Counted from the first letter of the stretch, positions 2,001-46,999 are shown. The stretch: DNA of 64,000 nucleotides from Candidatus Moraniibacteriota bacterium (GCA_028715015.1 JAQTLF010000001.1:29243-93242), one strand, 5' to 3'. Translations and numbers: made by a program. The notes: generated by a model from the letters alone, not told the origin.

Positions 2001-2342
2001 TTAAGCTTCTTTTACTTCTTCAACTGGAGCAGCTTCTTCAGCTTTTGCTTCCTCAACTGGAGCTTCTGGAGCAACCGGTTTTTCCATTTTCACAGCTCTT
2101 TTCTTTCCTTCAATCACACCTTCTTTGACAAAAAGGTTGTAGGCGCTGTCAGAAACTTGTGCTCCTTTGGCAATCCATTCTTTGATCTTATCTGCCTTCA
2201 GAACAGCCACTTTTGAATGTGGGTCATAACTGCCCAAAACTGCCACATGGCCGCCTGTAGGGGCTGCTGTGTGCTGCTGAAGCACTACTCTGAATTGAGC
2301 TCTATTTTTTCGTCCAACACGTGAGAATCTAATGGTCAACAT
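2001..2342 (-). CDS. rpsP: 30S ribosomal protein S16 with an Ala/Glu/Pro/Val-rich C-terminal tail
   Basis: N-terminal MLTIRFSRVGRKNRAQFRVV matches S16. Confidence 0.9.
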   Translation of the reverse strand: MLTIRFSRVGRKNRAQFRVVLQQHTAAPTGGHVAVLGSYDPHSKVAVLKADKIKEWIAKGAQVSDSAYNLFVKEGVIEGKKRAVKMEKPVAPEAPVEEAKAEEAAPVEEVKEA

Positions 2343-2427: not shown

Positions 2428-2456
2428 AATATACTAGCTTGTTGACATTTTGTCAA
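2428..2456 (-). promoter_or_regulatory. sigma70-type promoter for rpsP
   Basis: minus-strand TTGACA (complement of 2451-2456), 17-bp spacer, TATATT (complement of 2428-2433); the -35 lies in the palindrome TTGACAAAATGTCAA. Confidence 0.55.
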
Positions 2457-2489: not shown

Positions 2490-3335
2490 TTATTTCAATA
2501 ATTTATTGTTTTTATTTGATGCTAAAAAATTTTGTCCGGTCACCACACTTTTTCCGGTTTTTTCTTCAAGTGCAAGTCTGGCATCTTTGGCAATTTTCCC
2601 ACCTTTTTTGGCTGGAATTTTGTTTTCTTCCAAACCTTTTGATTCCATGGTTTCAGCAATCTGACGCGTGGAAAGTTCAGCCAGTGCTGTGAAAACCAAT
2701 TCTGCATCTGACATGTGATCACGCAAATTCTGCGTTTTGAGATTTTTCAAATCTTTGTGTTCTCTGACTGACAAATCACTCCATTCTTCATGAATGATGT
2801 TTGTCAAAATTGCAAACTCATCTTGCTCTTTAACTTCATTGTTTTTCCAATAATCAGTCAACTTGTTTCTGATTTCCTGCCCCATCATTCTTTGCTGAAT
2901 CCATTTTTCACTTCTTCCCATTTTTTGCCAATATCCCCTTGAGCGATTCACGCCCTTTTCCGGATCAGACATGTCCTGAATTCTTTCATATCCAACTTTT
3001 GCCAGCCATAATTTGATTGGTTCCGCTTTCCTAGATGGGACAGATTGAACAAGACGCAAAATTGTTTCCACGTCTGCCACATCAGTTAAATATTTTTTAC
3101 CATCAGCAGCTTCCAATTTCAGTTTGTCACATTTTGTGACAGACTCATTGCCTTCTTTTCTTAAACGATTTTTTAGTGTTGTCCAATAACTTTGCGCTTT
3201 TTTAAAATCTGCCTGATCTATTAAGGCAGCAACAATATCAATCACTGAAAAATACCAAGTCTCAGTTTTTTCGTCGTAGTGCCGACGAATTTTGAAATTC
3301 TCAAAAATTGCCAGCGAATCTTTTTTATTTTGCAT
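2490..3335 (-). CDS. DinD / Bro-N-domain (phage antirepressor-like, RhuM-like) protein
   Basis: 281 aa; N-terminal Bro-N-like region ([10 protein letters not shown]) and a DinD-like C-terminal region ([22 protein letters not shown]). Confidence 0.6.
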
Positions 3336-3374
3336 CTGATTTGTTTTTATTACTTATTGTCTAGCAAAGTGAGC

Positions 3375-3453
3375 GAAATGAAAATAAATTTTCATTTCCG
3401 AACAAGCGACGACAACAAGTGACTTTTTGTCACTTATAGTGATATTTTATCAC
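3375..3453. promoter_or_regulatory. three palindromic operator-like sites upstream of the DinD-like gene
   Basis: GAAATGAAAAT-aa-ATTTTCATTTC (3375-3398), AAGTGAC-ttttt-GTCACTT (3417-3435), GTGATA-ttt-TATCAC (3439-3453). Confidence 0.45.
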
Positions 3454-3489
3454 CATGTCAAAAAGCCGTCAACTTGGCTGCAAAATCGA

Positions 3490-5283
3490 TCAATCCACAT
3501 CTCCCATTTGTTGCAGATCAAGAAGTTTTTTGTAGAGTCCGTCATTGACTTTGGAAAGTTCACTGTGCGATCCGGTTTCCACCACCATGCCTTTTTCCAA
3601 AACCACGATCTTATCAGCTTTTTTGATGGTGCTCAGGCGATGAGCAATGATGATGACGGTGCGATTTTTGGAAATTTTGTCCATGGCATCCTGGATGAGT
3701 CTTTCGCTTTGGGAATCAAGATTGCTGGTCGCCTCATCAAAAATGAGCACCTTAGGATTAGCCAAAATGGCGCGTGCAATTCCGATGCGCTGCCTTTGTC
3801 CTCCTGACAATTTTATGCCGCGTTCCCCCACAATCGTGTCGTAGCCATCGTTCAATTGCATCACAAACTCTTCTGCATTGGCAATCCTGGCTGCGGCCTC
3901 AATTTCCTTTTTGCTGGCAGATGGTTTGGCATAGGCGATGTTTTCACTGATACTGGCATTGAAAATTTCCACATCTTGCGGAACAATGGCAAAAAATTTG
4001 CGAAAACCATAGAGGTCATATTTTCTCAAATCCGTTCCATCCAAAAGAACAGCTCCTTGGGTGGGATCATAATGACGATAAATCATTCTGGCCAAAGTTG
4101 TTTTGCCTCCGCCTGACGGACCGATGAGCGCTGTTGTTGCACCTTCAGGAATAACCAGATTCACATTTTTGAGAGCTTTCATCTTGCTGTCCGCATAGGC
4201 AAAACTCATTTTTCTGAATTCCAAATTTCCTCTGACATTCTTGGGCACGATTCCGCCAATTGGATTTTTAATGTCAGGTTGCTCTTTGGACAGTTCATAA
4301 ATTCTTTCCACAGCCTCGGAACTTTCCATGATGCGATCATAGAGGCGCGAGATGCGATACAATGAAATCAACGCTTTTTCAGAAATCGTGAACACGAAAA
4401 CCAATGTTCCCACTGTGATGTTGCCTTTCCAAACAAGCCAGGCGCCGAAAAGCAGAATAAAAAGTCTGCCTGAATCAATCACAAAATTACGTTTCAGATT
4501 CTGGTTCAAAATGTTGCCAAATTCTGAAAGCACAGTGGTTCTCAATTCTTCACGCAACTTTCCAAAACGGGTGCACTCCCGTTTTTCCTGGGTAAATGAT
4601 TTGACAGTGTTAATGTTCACCACTGATTGGGTCATCAAGCCTGCTGCTTTTTCATAGATGTCAAAACGATTTTTTCTAAGTGGAAAAACTCTGCGATTGA
4701 CACGGATTGTCAAAAATACAAAGATGGGCACGAAAAAGAGAACCACCATGCCGAATCGCCAATCAACCCAAAAAAGAACCACGGTGGTGAAAATTATTTG
4801 CAAAATTGTCGGAGCAACTTCCCATGACAAATTGCTGAGCAAATCAATGATCTTATCAATTCCGCGCTGAACCTTGCTTATTTTGCTGCCAGTGTTTTCT
4901 TTTTCATGATAACCGAGTCCCAAATAGATGAGTTTTTTGTGCGCCTGCCCGGAAAGATTCGATTCCGTGTCAGCCAAAATCCTGAATATTCTCTTGTCAT
5001 TGGTGTATTGCAAAATGGAAACGATTTCATTGATGGCAAACATGGCAAAAATCAAAGCTGCGATTTGAGCAATTTTTTCCACCCTGAAATTCGTGATCAA
5101 ATCAATGATCAATTTGAGCGTATATGGACCCGCCAAACGCGTGATTTCAACCACCAACATCAAGGAAAAAACTTTTTTCATTCCGCCTTGCGCCGGCAAG
5201 AGCAATTTCCAAAGCCGCATCCAAAAACCTTTGATGTCAAAAGTTCTTTCAGTTTTATTGTTTTTTTGCTTTTTTTCTTTCAT
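3490..5283 (-). CDS. ABC transporter, fused permease/ATPase (exporter type)
   Basis: 597 aa; N-terminal 6-TM domain; Walker A GPSGGGKTT; ABC signature LSGGQRQRIGIARA; Walker B LIFDEATS. Confidence 0.9.
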   Translation of the reverse strand: MKEKKQKNNKTERTFDIKGFWMRLWKLLLPAQGGMKKVFSLMLVVEITRLAGPYTLKLIIDLITNFRVEKIAQIAALIFAMFAINEIVSILQYTNDKRIFRILADTESNLSGQAHKKLIYLGLGYHEKENTGSKISKVQRGIDKIIDLLSNLSWEVAPTILQIIFTTVVLFWVDWRFGMVVLFFVPIFVFLTIRVNRRVFPLRKNRFDIYEKAAGLMTQSVVNINTVKSFTQEKRECTRFGKLREELRTTVLSEFGNILNQNLKRNFVIDSGRLFILLFGAWLVWKGNITVGTLVFVFTISEKALISLYRISRLYDRIMESSEAVERIYELSKEQPDIKNPIGGIVPKNVRGNLEFRKMSFAYADSKMKALKNVNLVIPEGATTALIGPSGGGKTTLARMIYRHYDPTQGAVLLDGTDLRKYDLYGFRKFFAIVPQDVEIFNASISENIAYAKPSASKKEIEAAARIANAEEFVMQLNDGYDTIVGERGIKLSGGQRQRIGIARAILANPKVLIFDEATSNLDSQSERLIQDAMDKISKNRTVIIIAHRLSTIKKADKIVVLEKGMVVETGSHSELSKVNDGLYKKLLDLQQMGDVD

Positions 5284-5330
5284 ATAAACATCATATCACG
5301 ATTGATTTTACATATCAAAAAATAAACAAT

Positions 5331-5396
5331 GTCATTCCCGTGAAAACGGGAATGACAAAGCAAAATATCAAAAAACCCCGCCTAGGCGGGGTTTTG
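5331..5396 (-). terminator. tandem rho-independent terminators downstream of hup
   Basis: two hairpins, GTCATTCCCGtgaaaaCGGGAATGAC and CCCCGCCtaGGCGGGG, each flanked by A and T runs (bidirectional). Confidence 0.7.
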
Positions 5397-5418
5397 AGAA
5401 ATAGAAAAATCCTATCGA

Positions 5419-5715
5419 CTACAATACTGCTTCTTTGGCAGCTTTTGCAAGACGGAATTTAACCACAGTTTTTGCAGCAATTTTGATTTTTTCTCCAGTT
5501 GCTGGGTTCACTCCCATTCTTGCTTTTCTTTTTGCTTTAACCATTTTTCCGAAACCAGGAAGAACGAATTCTCCAGTCTTTTTCACTTCTTTGTATGCGA
5601 TTGTAACGAGTTCATCAAAAAACCCATTAACTTCCTTTTTTGCCAAGCCTGTTTTTTCAGACAAGACTGTCACCAATTGTGACTTTGTCATTTTTGCCAT
5701 AGTGCGTGTTTTCAT
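5419..5715 (-). CDS. hup: DNA-binding protein HU (true start probably MAKMTKSQL or MTKSQL)
   Basis: about 90-aa HU/IHF fold, with a GFGKF-like arm (GFGKMVKAKRKARMGVNPATGEKIKI). Confidence 0.85.
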   Translation of the reverse strand: MKTRTMAKMTKSQLVTVLSEKTGLAKKEVNGFFDELVTIAYKEVKKTGEFVLPGFGKMVKAKRKARMGVNPATGEKIKIAAKTVVKFRLAKAAKEAVL

Positions 5716-5880
5716 TTTTAGTCCGGTTTTATGCGGGCAAAAAACGAATTTTTATTTATTAATTTATTTCTTTTGCATGTTGGCTCATGCATGCTCCAAT
5801 TATACACCATTATTAAAAGCTTTGCTAGTGGCTTTTGAATTATTGTCAATAGTCATGGGGTCAATACCGATATTGGCATT

Positions 5881-36062: not shown

Positions 36063-36290
36063 TCATTTCAGATAAGTTTTTGCTTCCTCTATTGTAGCAA
36101 TGAAATTTGCAACATGATCTTTGAATATCAGTGTCCTATTGGTGACATTTTCACCTTTTTGATTTTTGTAGGAGTCAGTGATGGTCAGATAGTTGCTGCC
36201 ATTACTGGCTTTTTTCACATCAAAAAAATAGTTTTTACTCCCGGCACGAAGCATTTTGGAGAATACGCTCTCTCTTGAATTGTTTTCCAT
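36063..36290 (-). CDS. DUF3276 / PUR-alpha-like nucleic-acid-binding protein
   Basis: VFSKMLRAGSKNYFFDVKKASNGSNYLTITDS matches the DUF3276 (PurA-like) repeat signature. Confidence 0.65.
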   Translation of the reverse strand: MENNSRESVFSKMLRAGSKNYFFDVKKASNGSNYLTITDSYKNQKGENVTNRTLIFKDHVANFIATIEEAKTYLK

Positions 36291-36462
36291 GTGTTTTTGT
36301 CTTTTGTCTTGCCAAATCCTGTCACTGACAGAAAATTTAACAAGGATTTTAATTTTTATATTGTTTGCTGAGCGTGGCCATCGCTCGCAGTGTCATCTTA
36401 TCACTGATTCAATATCACTGCAAGTATCAACGGCTGTGGATAACTTTATTCCCCAACAAGTC

Positions 36463-45338: not shown

Positions 45339-45508
45339 TATATGGTTTCAAATATTAACTTTTGTTTTTTGCTTTGCCTGTTTTCTTTTGAGGCCATCCG
45401 CAGCGAGAGCAAGGACGAGCGAGCAATCATAGTTCTTCGATTGCGAAGCGTGCCGAAAAAGGAAATAGGCAAAGCAAAAAAAGTCAGAGAAAACTATATA
45501 TTGCGCAT
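45332..45508. mobile_element. MITE-like element copy 1 (~177 bp, imperfect 15-17-bp TIRs, GC-richer core)
   Basis: about 90% identical, in inverse orientation, to 59965-60144; the TIR resembles TGCACAATATATGG ... CTATATATTGCGCA. Confidence 0.75.
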
Positions 45509-45583
45509 TAACCCAATAATGCTGTTTTATAAGTTGTCACTGAAGAATCAAATCTGAGAAATGATTCTTCAGTGACACAAGTT

Positions 45584-46999
45584 CTAGACGATCTTCTTTT
45601 TCTTGGTGACAATTTTGATGCCAGCTTCAACAAGTTGCTTTTCATCCAGAACGCTTGGCGCTTCCATCATCGGATCTTCCGCTTCCCCGGTCTTGGCAAA
45701 AGCGATGACTTCACGGATGTTCGGTTCATTTTGCAAAATCATCACCAAGCGGTCGATTCCTGGTGCAATTCCTCCGTGCGGTGGAGCGCCATATTTGAAA
45801 GATTCAAGCATGTGTCCATAGTCACGTTGCACATTTTCTTCGGAAATTCCCATGATTTCCAAAACCTTGCGCAAAGCTTTGGGCTCATGATTCCTGATGC
45901 TTCCTCCGCCTGCTTCATATCCATTGAGCACGATGTCATATTGGGTCGTCAAAATGTCAGCGATGTTTTCCTTGTTCATAAGTTGCTCCATGAATTCAGG
46001 CTTCGGACGTGAAAACGGATTGTGTGTGAATGTCCAACCAGTCGATGATTCCTCATCTTTTTCAAAAAATGGAAAATCAACCACCCAACAGAATGCCAAA
46101 AGATTCGGATCATTCTTGTCTTCCCTGATGTCAGGTTTGTCATTGCCATATTTTTCCATCGATTCTTTATATGACAAACGCGGGAATGGTATTTCCTGGA
46201 TTCTTTTTTCCGGAAATTGTGTCTGCACCAGTTTGATCAACATTTCTTCCACCACATTCATCACGTCTTCCTGCTCCACAAAACTCATCTCCATATCCAA
46301 TTGAGTGAACTCCGGTTGACGATCACCGCGAGTGTCTTCGTCTCTGAAACATCTGGCGATTTGAAAATATTTTTCAATTCCAGCCACCATCAGCAACTGT
46401 TTGTATTGTTGAGGAGATTGTGGCAAAGCATAGAATTTTCCTTTGTAAATTCGTGATGGCACAACATAATCCCTTGATCCCTCGGCCGTGGTCTTTCCTA
46501 AAATCGGAGTTTCAACTTCGATGAAACCTTGTTCTCCCAAGAAATCCCTGAAGAATTTGACCACTTTGTATCTGGTCAAAATGTTGTTTTTCATTCTCTC
46601 CGATCTGAGATCAAGATAACGATATTTCAAGCGCAATTTTTCATCAACTTCCTTGGTGTCTTTGGTTATTTCAAACGGTGTGGTTTTGGCTTCATTCAAA
46701 ATTTCTATGGAAGTAACTTCCAATTCGACTCCGCCTGTGGGAGATTTTTCATTCTTGGCGCTCATCGGACGCTCCTTCACGATTCCCTCCATTTCAATCA
46801 CAAACTCGTTTCTGAGTCTTTTGGCGTTGTCATGAGCTTCAACATGATCGGGAATAATGACAGTCTGGATGATTCCGCTGCGATCACGCAAATCAACAAA
46901 AATCAATTTTCCATGATCTCTGCGGATGTGGACCCAACCGGCCAATTTGACGGTCTTTCCAATAAACTTAGGTGTGTCGATAATGTTTGTTCGTTGCAT
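45584..46999 (-). CDS. aspS: aspartyl-tRNA synthetase (compact, 471 aa, non-bacterial-type length)
   Basis: N-terminal OB domain; class II motifs; FRDEDTRGDRQPEFTQLDMEMSF; GAPPHGGIAPGIDRLVM. Confidence 0.9.
   Translation of the reverse strand: MQRTNIIDTPKFIGKTVKLAGWVHIRRDHGKLIFVDLRDRSGIIQTVIIPDHVEAHDNAKRLRNEFVIEMEGIVKERPMSAKNEKSPTGGVELEVTSIEILNEAKTTPFEITKDTKEVDEKLRLKYRYLDLRSERMKNNILTRYKVVKFFRDFLGEQGFIEVETPILGKTTAEGSRDYVVPSRIYKGKFYALPQSPQQYKQLLMVAGIEKYFQIARCFRDEDTRGDRQPEFTQLDMEMSFVEQEDVMNVVEEMLIKLVQTQFPEKRIQEIPFPRLSYKESMEKYGNDKPDIREDKNDPNLLAFCWVVDFPFFEKDEESSTGWTFTHNPFSRPKPEFMEQLMNKENIADILTTQYDIVLNGYEAGGGSIRNHEPKALRKVLEIMGISEENVQRDYGHMLESFKYGAPPHGGIAPGIDRLVMILQNEPNIREVIAFAKTGEAEDPMMEAPSVLDEKQLVEAGIKIVTKKKKIV

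Follow-up and report, generated by a model that had tools for sequence, protein, structure and literature searches.

A DinD-superfamily gene with a DdrC-like modelled fold behind a probable SOS-type operator in a Moraniibacteriota genome

The dinD gene of Escherichia coli is a classical LexA-regulated gene, and the regulator of DdrC, a member of the Deinococcus damage regulon, is DdrO/IrrE, not LexA. Removal of RecA filaments is ascribed to the DinD protein (Uranga 2011, as cited in PMC4849656). DdrC is described as a damage-induced, Deinococcus-specific protein without homologues and with a Dachshund-like N-terminal domain, whose dimer senses nicks and breaks and compacts DNA (PMC9303277, PMC11347143). 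No connection between DdrC and DinD was found in the literature searched, in which one review names both without linking them. Here we describe a DinD-like gene in a stretch of 64,000 nucleotides (nt) from a Candidatus Moraniibacteriota bacterium (GCA_028715015.1, JAQTLF010000001.1:29243-93242), referred to below as the window. On balance, the gene probably encodes a LexA-repressed, damage-inducible DinD/DdrC-like factor that would bind DNA or RecA filaments.

The DinD-like protein and its modelled fold

The gene was identified as an open reading frame (ORF) whose product is identical to NCBI entry PHW24_00200.

2490..3335, minus strand: coding sequence for 281 amino acids; DinD superfamily, subfamily A; Bro-N-type winged-helix N-terminal domain at about residues 18-98, helical C-terminal domain at about residues 105-260

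The window protein is a stand-alone member of the DinD superfamily, of a type named here subfamily A; subfamily B shares about 43% identity with A, and subfamily C is the E. coli type. The DinD-like C-terminus proposed in the initial annotation of this DNA is supported by the PADLOC models of PDC-S13. Model PDLC04920 matches the window protein over its full length (residues 4-277, E 4.4e-115) and E. coli DinD from MG1655 in its C-terminal half (residues 122-250, E 2.2e-16), the latter protein being matched by PDLC04919 at 2.4e-121. The proposed Bro-N-like N-terminus also has support, and the modelled fold described below agrees with it. Pfam Bro-N (PF02498) was detected at residues 18-113 with 20.9 bits (E 5.8e-4), just under the gathering cutoff of 25.6 bits, and the domain is carried by many homologues of at least 76% identity and by every subfamily-B paralogue; E. 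coli DinD scores 32 bits (1.5e-7) and a subfamily-B paralogue 48 bits. The motif N203-L-R-D-H-M208..E212-L213 is invariant. PHROG 15286, which has no assigned function, matches the protein at 5e-87. Virulence_RhuM (PF13310) gave no Pfam match in the protein, an NCBIfam search gave no match, and the PDB yielded nothing relevant by sequence, whether queried with the protein alone or with profiles.

An AlphaFold monomer model was generated from alignment A1 (subfamilies A and B), with a predicted local distance difference test score (pLDDT) of 84.9. The modelled chain forms a beta-hairpin, a winged helix-turn-helix (residues 18-98) and long helices (residues 105-260), with no recognisable enzyme or toxin domain. 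The sole significant matches in a Foldseek search of the PDB were six chains of Deinococcus radiodurans DdrC (E 1.5e-5 to 2.4e-4, probability 1.0), on which the beta-hairpin, the winged-helix N-terminal domain and the helical bundle that follows it can be superposed. As modelled, the whole protein has the DdrC fold.

The subfamilies coexist in related loci (handles beginning with L), at times in tandem: C is followed 8 nt later by A in L084, A is followed by B in L015, and A and B lie 5 kb apart in L083. Tandem arrays of DinD-superfamily paralogues and RhuM genes were seen at L084:2-655 and 664-1509, at L015:4001-4843 and 5033-5851, at L040:93-1124, 2952-3980 and 3995-4819, and at L070:2970 and 4001. 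In the L015 and L040 arrays the promoter and operator are duplicated with each copy, with more than 45 nt of identical upstream sequence. The first ~267 of the 717 positions of the PADLOC model PDLC03083 (Specificity_I) are a DinD-like domain (E 3e-114 against E. coli DinD), which implies that DinD-HsdS fusion proteins exist.

Promoter anatomy and an operator common to related genomes

The DinD-like gene is transcribed from a predicted sigma-70-type promoter of its own, which lies with three palindromes in the 154-nt spacer upstream of the coding sequence.

3467..3472, minus strand: -35 hexamer TTGACG of the promoter TTGACG-N17-TAAAAT (10 of 12 matches, with TG); the same layout occurs in L001, L005 and L014
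3444..3452, minus strand: extended -10 element TGATAAAAT (TG 3452-3451, TAAAAT 3449-3444), with a predicted transcription start at about 3437
3438..3454, minus-strand reading: operator 1, GGTGATA-AAA-TATCACT, centred on the -10 box, with a perfect palindrome GTGATA-N3-TATCAC at 3439-3453
3417..3435, no strand assigned: operator 2, AAGTGAC-AAAAA-GTCACTT, containing AGTGA-N7-TCACT, at about +4 to +20; it could also form a 5' mRNA hairpin
3375..3398, no strand assigned: palindrome with arms of 11 base pairs (bp), GAAATGAAAAT-TT-ATTTTCATTTC, in the ~100-nt leader; it occurs once in the window
3336..3437, minus strand: predicted 5' leader of ~102 nt without a Shine-Dalgarno sequence; the leaders of relatives measure 14-27 nt

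All three perfect palindromes claimed for the region upstream of the gene are present (3375-3398, 3417-3435 and 3439-3453). Among 5000 dinucleotide shuffles of the spacer, the probability was 0.025 for at least three palindromes, 0.007 for summed arms of at least 24 and 0.001 for an arm of at least 11, and the window as a whole averages 0.6 such palindromes per 154 nt; the observation of three palindromes is therefore real, modestly beyond chance. They do not represent three distinct operators, as had been suggested. Two are copies of one operator motif, AGTGA-N7-TCACT, with the same half-sites and spacing and with centres 20 bp apart, about two helical turns. The right arm of operator 1, TATCACTATAA (3444-3434), perfectly matches the lineage consensus TTATAGTGATA-N3-TATCACTATAA. 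The 11-bp-arm palindrome is absent from all of the related loci compared; it could form a hairpin in the RNA or bind some other factor, and a Fur/Zur-box reading of it was not adopted. A scan of viral contigs for its core returned 36 matches, in AT-rich and giant-virus contigs, and was uninformative.

The leader folds into exactly two hairpins, formed by the 11-bp-arm palindrome and by AAGTGAC-N5-GTCACTT (minimum free energy -24.7 kcal/mol, z = -3.5), and it is unusually long compared with those of relatives. Both features would be expected if these two palindromes acted as RNA, that is, as leader hairpins that stabilise the mRNA, tune translation or stop read-through from the upstream exporter gene. 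This explanation is nevertheless improbable: neither stem is followed by a U-tract, a terminator scan of the intergenic region found none, the leader matches no Rfam family, and the second of the two palindromes is an exact DNA operator core. An imperfect 17-nt direct repeat (3344-3360 and 3424-3440, 82% identity) flanks an extra segment of ~80 nt in the leader that contains operator 2 and the 11-bp-arm palindrome. Compared with the 14-27-nt leaders of homologues, this segment looks like an insertion or duplication.

In relatives, the operator element usually lies 14-27 nt before the ATG, often as a palindrome with 11-12-bp arms. The form TTATAGTGATA-N3-TATCACTATAA is found in L083 (an 85% homologue) and in L051, and perfect 11-12-bp arms occur also in L003 and others; the L003 version, ATTATAATGATA-CAA-TATCATTATAAT, carries a compensatory G:C to A:T change. 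A metagenome scan for exact TATAGTGATA-N3-TATCACTATA retrieved 35 loci, about 28 of them with an ORF starting 14-23 nt downstream. The genes behind these perfect operators encode RhuM proteins (seven loci), subfamily C or E. coli-type DinD (three), subfamily B (four) and subfamily A (four); the remaining genes encode DNA methylases, a HaeIII endonuclease, a methylase-specificity fusion, AntA and MazE. A LexA gene (PF01726 and PF00717) follows one of the perfect sites at a distance of 88 nt. Four further Moranbacteria, whose lexA genes are chromosomal and in the order uvrB..lexA..uvrA, have the motif on the -10 box of the lexA promoter, with one to three mismatches. The lexA-promoter motif is perfect in L207 and has one mismatch in L242 and L244 and two in L240, a locus from the same genome as L083. 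When the window and ~700 kb of related loci were scanned, 19 sites with at most two mismatches were found, 17 of them in promoter position before a narrow set of genes. Its recurrence before these genes marks the element as a regulon operator, and a palindrome on the -10 box of lexA as well as of further genes in several genomes is what classically identifies a LexA box.

Within the window itself, the pattern AGTGATA-N3-TATCACT with at most three mismatches occurs six times where 1.9 are expected, a count of six being reached in one of 100 shuffles. The core AGTGA-N7-TCACT with at most one mismatch occurs only four times, twice at the DinD-like gene and twice at the promoter of a DUF3276 gene, which has a second regulatory module.

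36063..36290, minus strand: DUF3276 (Pur-alpha-like) gene, 75 amino acids (Pfam 1.2e-13)
36380..36444, minus strand: second regulatory module, with a GTTATCCACAG box at 36444-36434, a -35 hexamer TTGCAG at 36423-36418 overlapped by a CAGTGATA half-site, and a -10 box TAAGAT at 36400-36395
36405-36389, minus strand: operator CAGTGATA-AGA-TGACACTG, a palindrome around the -10 box TAAGAT of the DUF3276 promoter

On the minus strand the module reads AAGTTATCCACAG-N10-TTGCAGTGATA-N7-AGTGATAAGATGACACTG, corresponding to the box, the -35 hexamer with its half-site, and the -10 box inside the palindrome, and it lies ~98 nt upstream of the DUF3276 gene. A TATCAC half-site had previously been pointed out at about 36380-36410; the resemblance is stronger than that, as two sites (36389-36405 and 36403-36419), each with two mismatches to AGTGATA-N3-TATCACT, stand within a full promoter module. 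The same promoter design is found at lexA in L242 and L244. In L219 the module also precedes a DUF3276 homologue (from 844 on), there with a perfect operator at L219:682. The presence of the module at DUF3276 both in the window and in L219 thus makes DUF3276 a conserved co-member of the regulon.

The GTTATCCACAG box matches the DnaA-box consensus, and 18 of the 35 metagenome loci (L205-L239) have it no more than 50 nt from the perfect operator. In the form aGTTATCCACAgg, identical to the DnaA-box consensus TTATCCACA, it stands ~8-10 nt upstream of the -35 hexamer, and it is seen also at lexA (L242:~2795, L244:~2857) and at DUF3276 (L219:645-655). The box in forward orientation is absent from the promoter of the window's DinD-like gene. 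DnaA or another factor is a candidate binder. The slot between lexA and uvrA varies among the Moranbacteria: it holds a DUF3800 gene in L240 (3682-4479), a gene of no assigned family and a DNA cytosine methylase gene in L242 (3707-5643), and a gene of the 23S_rRNA_IVP family in L244 (3693-4070), and it is empty in L246 (3660-3670), where lexA adjoins uvrA. A DUF3800 gene at L003:5328 also carries the operator.

We consider AGTGA-N7-TCACT most likely to be the LexA (SOS) box of the lineage. SOS-like repressor control, as had been proposed for the gene, is supported by a promoter-proximal palindrome common to the lexA promoters of related Moranbacteria, and we think it fairly likely that LexA itself is the protein that binds it. 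Membership of the protein in the DinD superfamily together with the status of the element as a regulon operator can be stated with high confidence. The protein might alternatively bind the palindromes through its own Bro-N winged helix, making the gene a self-contained, autorepressed cassette. Bro-N-type domains do bind DNA, in several lineages the gene is accompanied by this promoter and operator, which are duplicated along with the paralogues of L015 and L040, and no regulator gene lies beside the cassette. Yet the identical operator heads genes whose N-terminal domains are unrelated or divergent (LexA, MazE, HaeIII endonuclease, methylases, DUF3276, RhuM, and DinD subfamilies A, B and C), and many genomes have a DinD-like gene without the operator, so that autorepression is very unlikely.

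Distribution, genomic context and proposed function

At 90% identity, homologues of the DinD-like protein fall into more than 8000 clusters; the top 120 share 76-100% identity with it. A HMMER search retrieved 8986 representatives of 50%-identity clusters at E<=1e-3, with 621 at E<=1e-30. Among species-representative genomes, the best 80 loci show 67-82% protein identity and come from more than 15 phyla, with hosts in many candidate-phyla classes, Bacteroidota, Ignavibacteria, Desulfobacterota, Gammaproteobacteria, Planctomycetota, Acidobacteriota, Nitrospirales, Omnitrophota and others; several of these loci sit on contigs of 0.2-1 Mb. Third-codon GC content in the gene lies between 0.24 and 0.81 and tracks the GC content of the host flanks (r = 0.85, L001-L080). 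Recent transfer was considered as the source of the high identity and rejected, since third-codon GC is equilibrated to each host; the identity is therefore ascribed to strong purifying selection over a long residence and not to recent spread. Judged by these sequence comparisons, purifying selection on the gene is unusually strong for an accessory gene.

The same observations bear on a phage origin, since the initial annotation had called the gene phage antirepressor-like and possibly the remnant of a mobile element. A prophage antirepressor remnant, with palindromes left over from CI/Cro-type operators, would fit with the prevalence of Bro-N and AntA proteins in phages, with the PHROG 15286 match, and with the resemblance of TATCAC to a lambda operator half-site. 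Against this, homologues were found in only four of 50,697 phage records, all short and unannotated, and third-codon GC is that of the hosts; no integrase, phage genes or tRNAs were found near the gene, where base composition and GC are normal. A scan of viral contigs for the operator gave 120 matches, apparently by chance, none with a DinD or RhuM gene downstream. We regard such an origin as highly improbable. What stands of the earlier description is the Bro-N/DinD protein, the link to DUF3276 and the SOS-like character of the operators; a phage or mobile remnant is not supported, and the palindromes are not three distinct operators. Plasmid records with a homologue are uncommon (24).

The genes that flank the DinD-like gene on the minus strand are as follows.

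3490..5283, minus strand: ABC exporter, 597 amino acids, one flank of the 281-residue ORF
2001..2342, minus strand: rpsP, the other flank of the ORF

The order on the minus strand is the ABC exporter, the spacer, the DinD-like gene, rpsP, L10 and L7/L12. The ORF map agrees with the placement between rpsP and an ABC exporter given previously, and the neighbours of the gene within the window are housekeeping genes. Strong sigma-70-type promoters were found for rpsP (11 of 12 matches, 2428-2456, minus strand) and for the exporter (10 of 12, 5290-5318, minus strand), and two GC-rich terminator hairpins precede the exporter promoter (5330-5395). As rpsP and the exporter each have a promoter of their own, the exporter, the DinD-like gene and rpsP are separate transcription units. 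In the closest relative, L084, the ribosomal proteins are 90-93% identical, the DinD-like protein is 90% identical and its gene is likewise beside rpsP; the upstream DNA differs from that of the window, an additional NUDIX gene is present, and nucleotide homology begins exactly at the ATG. The position beside rpsP is thus variable, and the two genomes did not inherit the promoter cassette from their common ancestor. The gene had been described as inserted, which is correct only in the limited sense that the rpsP-adjacent site varies between close relatives.

A search for a conserved partner gene found none, 118 of 125 neighbour families being singletons. A minority of homologues recur inside defence loci. 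These include restriction-modification operons, several with the homologue directly after hsdM or another restriction-modification gene, and a Parabacteroides locus in which the homologue adjoins a nucleotidyltransferase and DUF86 gene pair. On plasmid pACLO of Arcobacter cloacae (L285, 6010-6906), a 48%-identical homologue lies between cas4 and cas1b of a type I-B CRISPR-cas operon. The main rival to SOS control of a DNA-binding factor starts from such loci. It holds that the protein is an anti-phage defence effector (PDC-S13) that senses phage DNA or an inhibited neighbouring defence system and aborts infection, with the operator belonging to a dedicated repressor of defence and mobile genes. 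The full-length PDC-S13 match and the DinD-like N-terminus of the type I specificity-subunit model speak for it, as do the homologues after hsdM or other restriction-modification genes, the Arcobacter and Parabacteroides loci, and the operator-headed genes, which are chiefly of restriction-modification, toxin-antitoxin, RhuM and AntA types. However, the window neighbours are housekeeping genes, a conserved partner gene is lacking, and the operator is also on lexA and DUF3276, chromosomal genes in uvrB-lexA-uvrA context; PDC systems are candidates only, and the fold is that of a DNA-damage protein, with no domain of an enzyme or toxin that could be recognised. A defence effector of this kind appears rather unlikely. 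It overlaps with the favoured reading, because SOS-controlled defence is possible.

Under the LexA-repressed, damage-inducible reading, LexA dimers on the two adjacent operators would block RNA polymerase. DNA damage or phage attack would activate RecA, LexA would cleave itself, and the DinD-like gene would be expressed. The product, probably a dimer, would then bind damaged DNA or RecA-DNA filaments, with precedents in DdrC, which acts on nicks and breaks, and in E. coli DinD, which acts on postsynaptic RecA filaments. Induction of the gene by DNA damage is most likely, given that its operator recurs on the lexA promoters of related genomes. The biochemical role as a binder of DNA or RecA filaments is put forward tentatively, by analogy with these two proteins.

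Several observations weigh against this interpretation. Motif searches within the window did not find lexA, recA or uvrA (nor dnaA), so the link between operator and lexA rests on related genomes; a LexA-like tblastn match at 45407-45859 (E 0.08) is spurious, overlapping an aspartyl-tRNA-synthetase-like ORF on the other strand. The uvrA promoters beside lexA show a half-site at most. The left arm of operator 1 is degenerate, its match to the consensus being confined to GTGATA, and the 90%-identical L084 gene has no such promoter, lying 8 nt behind an E. coli-type DinD paralogue. The genes behind perfect operators are mostly of defence or mobile type, which could mean that a dedicated defence-island repressor also controls lexA. 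A LexA motif for Patescibacteria was reportedly published by Sanchez-Osuna et al. in 2017, with which the operator and regulon defined here may overlap. The likeness to DdrC is at the level of fold only: when alignments A1 and A2 were used as profiles against the PDB, DdrC was not among the matches, even with the limit relaxed to E<=10. Finally, a direct BLASTP comparison of the window protein with E. coli DinD gives no significant similarity (E 0.18), and hhalign gives a weak one (probability 8%, E 0.004, 47 columns over the LRDHM..EL motif). The two proteins have PDC-S13 models in common without significant direct similarity, and the window protein is therefore assigned to a paralogous subfamily of the DinD superfamily and not considered an orthologue of E. 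coli DinD.

A broader proposal is possible, with somewhat less than even confidence in all of its parts together. Moranbacteria and related candidate phyla may have an SOS-type regulon with the operator TTATAGTGATA-N3-TATCACTATAA, often accompanied by the DnaA-box-like GTTATCCACAG, that places restriction-modification, toxin-antitoxin and RhuM genes and three DinD subfamilies under lexA-type control; and the DinD superfamily, conserved across phyla to the degree of core translation factors, may be the wider family of DdrC. If so, bacteria at large would have a class of damage-induced proteins acting on DNA ends or RecA filaments, which SOS, restriction-modification and CRISPR loci have recruited. 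Three damage-inducible or presumably damage-inducible proteins that have been studied separately, namely DinD of E. coli, DdrC of Deinococcus and the uncharacterised PDC-S13/Bro-N family, appear to belong to one fold family. Identity of 67-82% across phyla with host-adapted codon composition would imply a universal partner, such as DNA ends or RecA, and would offer a route to the cellular role of DinD. The work also provides a concrete operator and regulated gene set for a stress regulon in candidate-phyla bacteria that are hard to culture, and suggests that defence genes in these tiny genomes are wired to a DNA-damage signal. The definition of the operator and regulon, the tie of the regulon to defence-type genes, the strong conservation of the family and the DdrC fold link may be new.

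Comparison with described systems

E. coli DinD (b3645) resembles the window protein in size (274 and 281 amino acids), in its Bro-N N-terminal domain, in a C-terminal domain on the same PDC-S13 model with the (L/R)DHM..EL motif, and in a palindromic operator on the promoter, which in E. coli is a LexA box. It differs in belonging to another subfamily, and genes of the E. coli type coexist with subfamily A, as in the L084 tandem. DdrC (PDB 7qvb, 7udi and 8u0g) differs more in sequence, with 11-13% identity and no match detectable at the sequence level; it is described as Deinococcus-specific, and the domain-swapped, asymmetric, nick-sensing dimer is a feature of DdrC, whereas the window protein was modelled as a monomer.

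PADLOC PDC-S13 has in common with the window protein a full-length hidden Markov model match (4e-115), a single gene with no fixed partner, and relatives in restriction-modification and CRISPR loci. The window differs in having no defence context, and the literature search found no published function for PDC-S13. Virulence_RhuM is a separate protein family that has the operator and promoter module in common with the DinD-like genes, is their operon partner in L040 and L051, and is likewise inserted in restriction-modification loci. The LexA boxes of other phyla, CTGT-N8-ACAG in E. coli and GAAC-N4-GTTC in Gram-positive bacteria, are similar to the operator described here in being palindromes over the -10 and -35 elements, in their presence on the lexA promoter and in the occurrence of tandem sites. 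They differ in sequence from AGTGATA-N3-TATCACT, which often has a GTTATCCACAG box ~10 nt above the -35 hexamer and which heads genes mostly of defence or mobile type.

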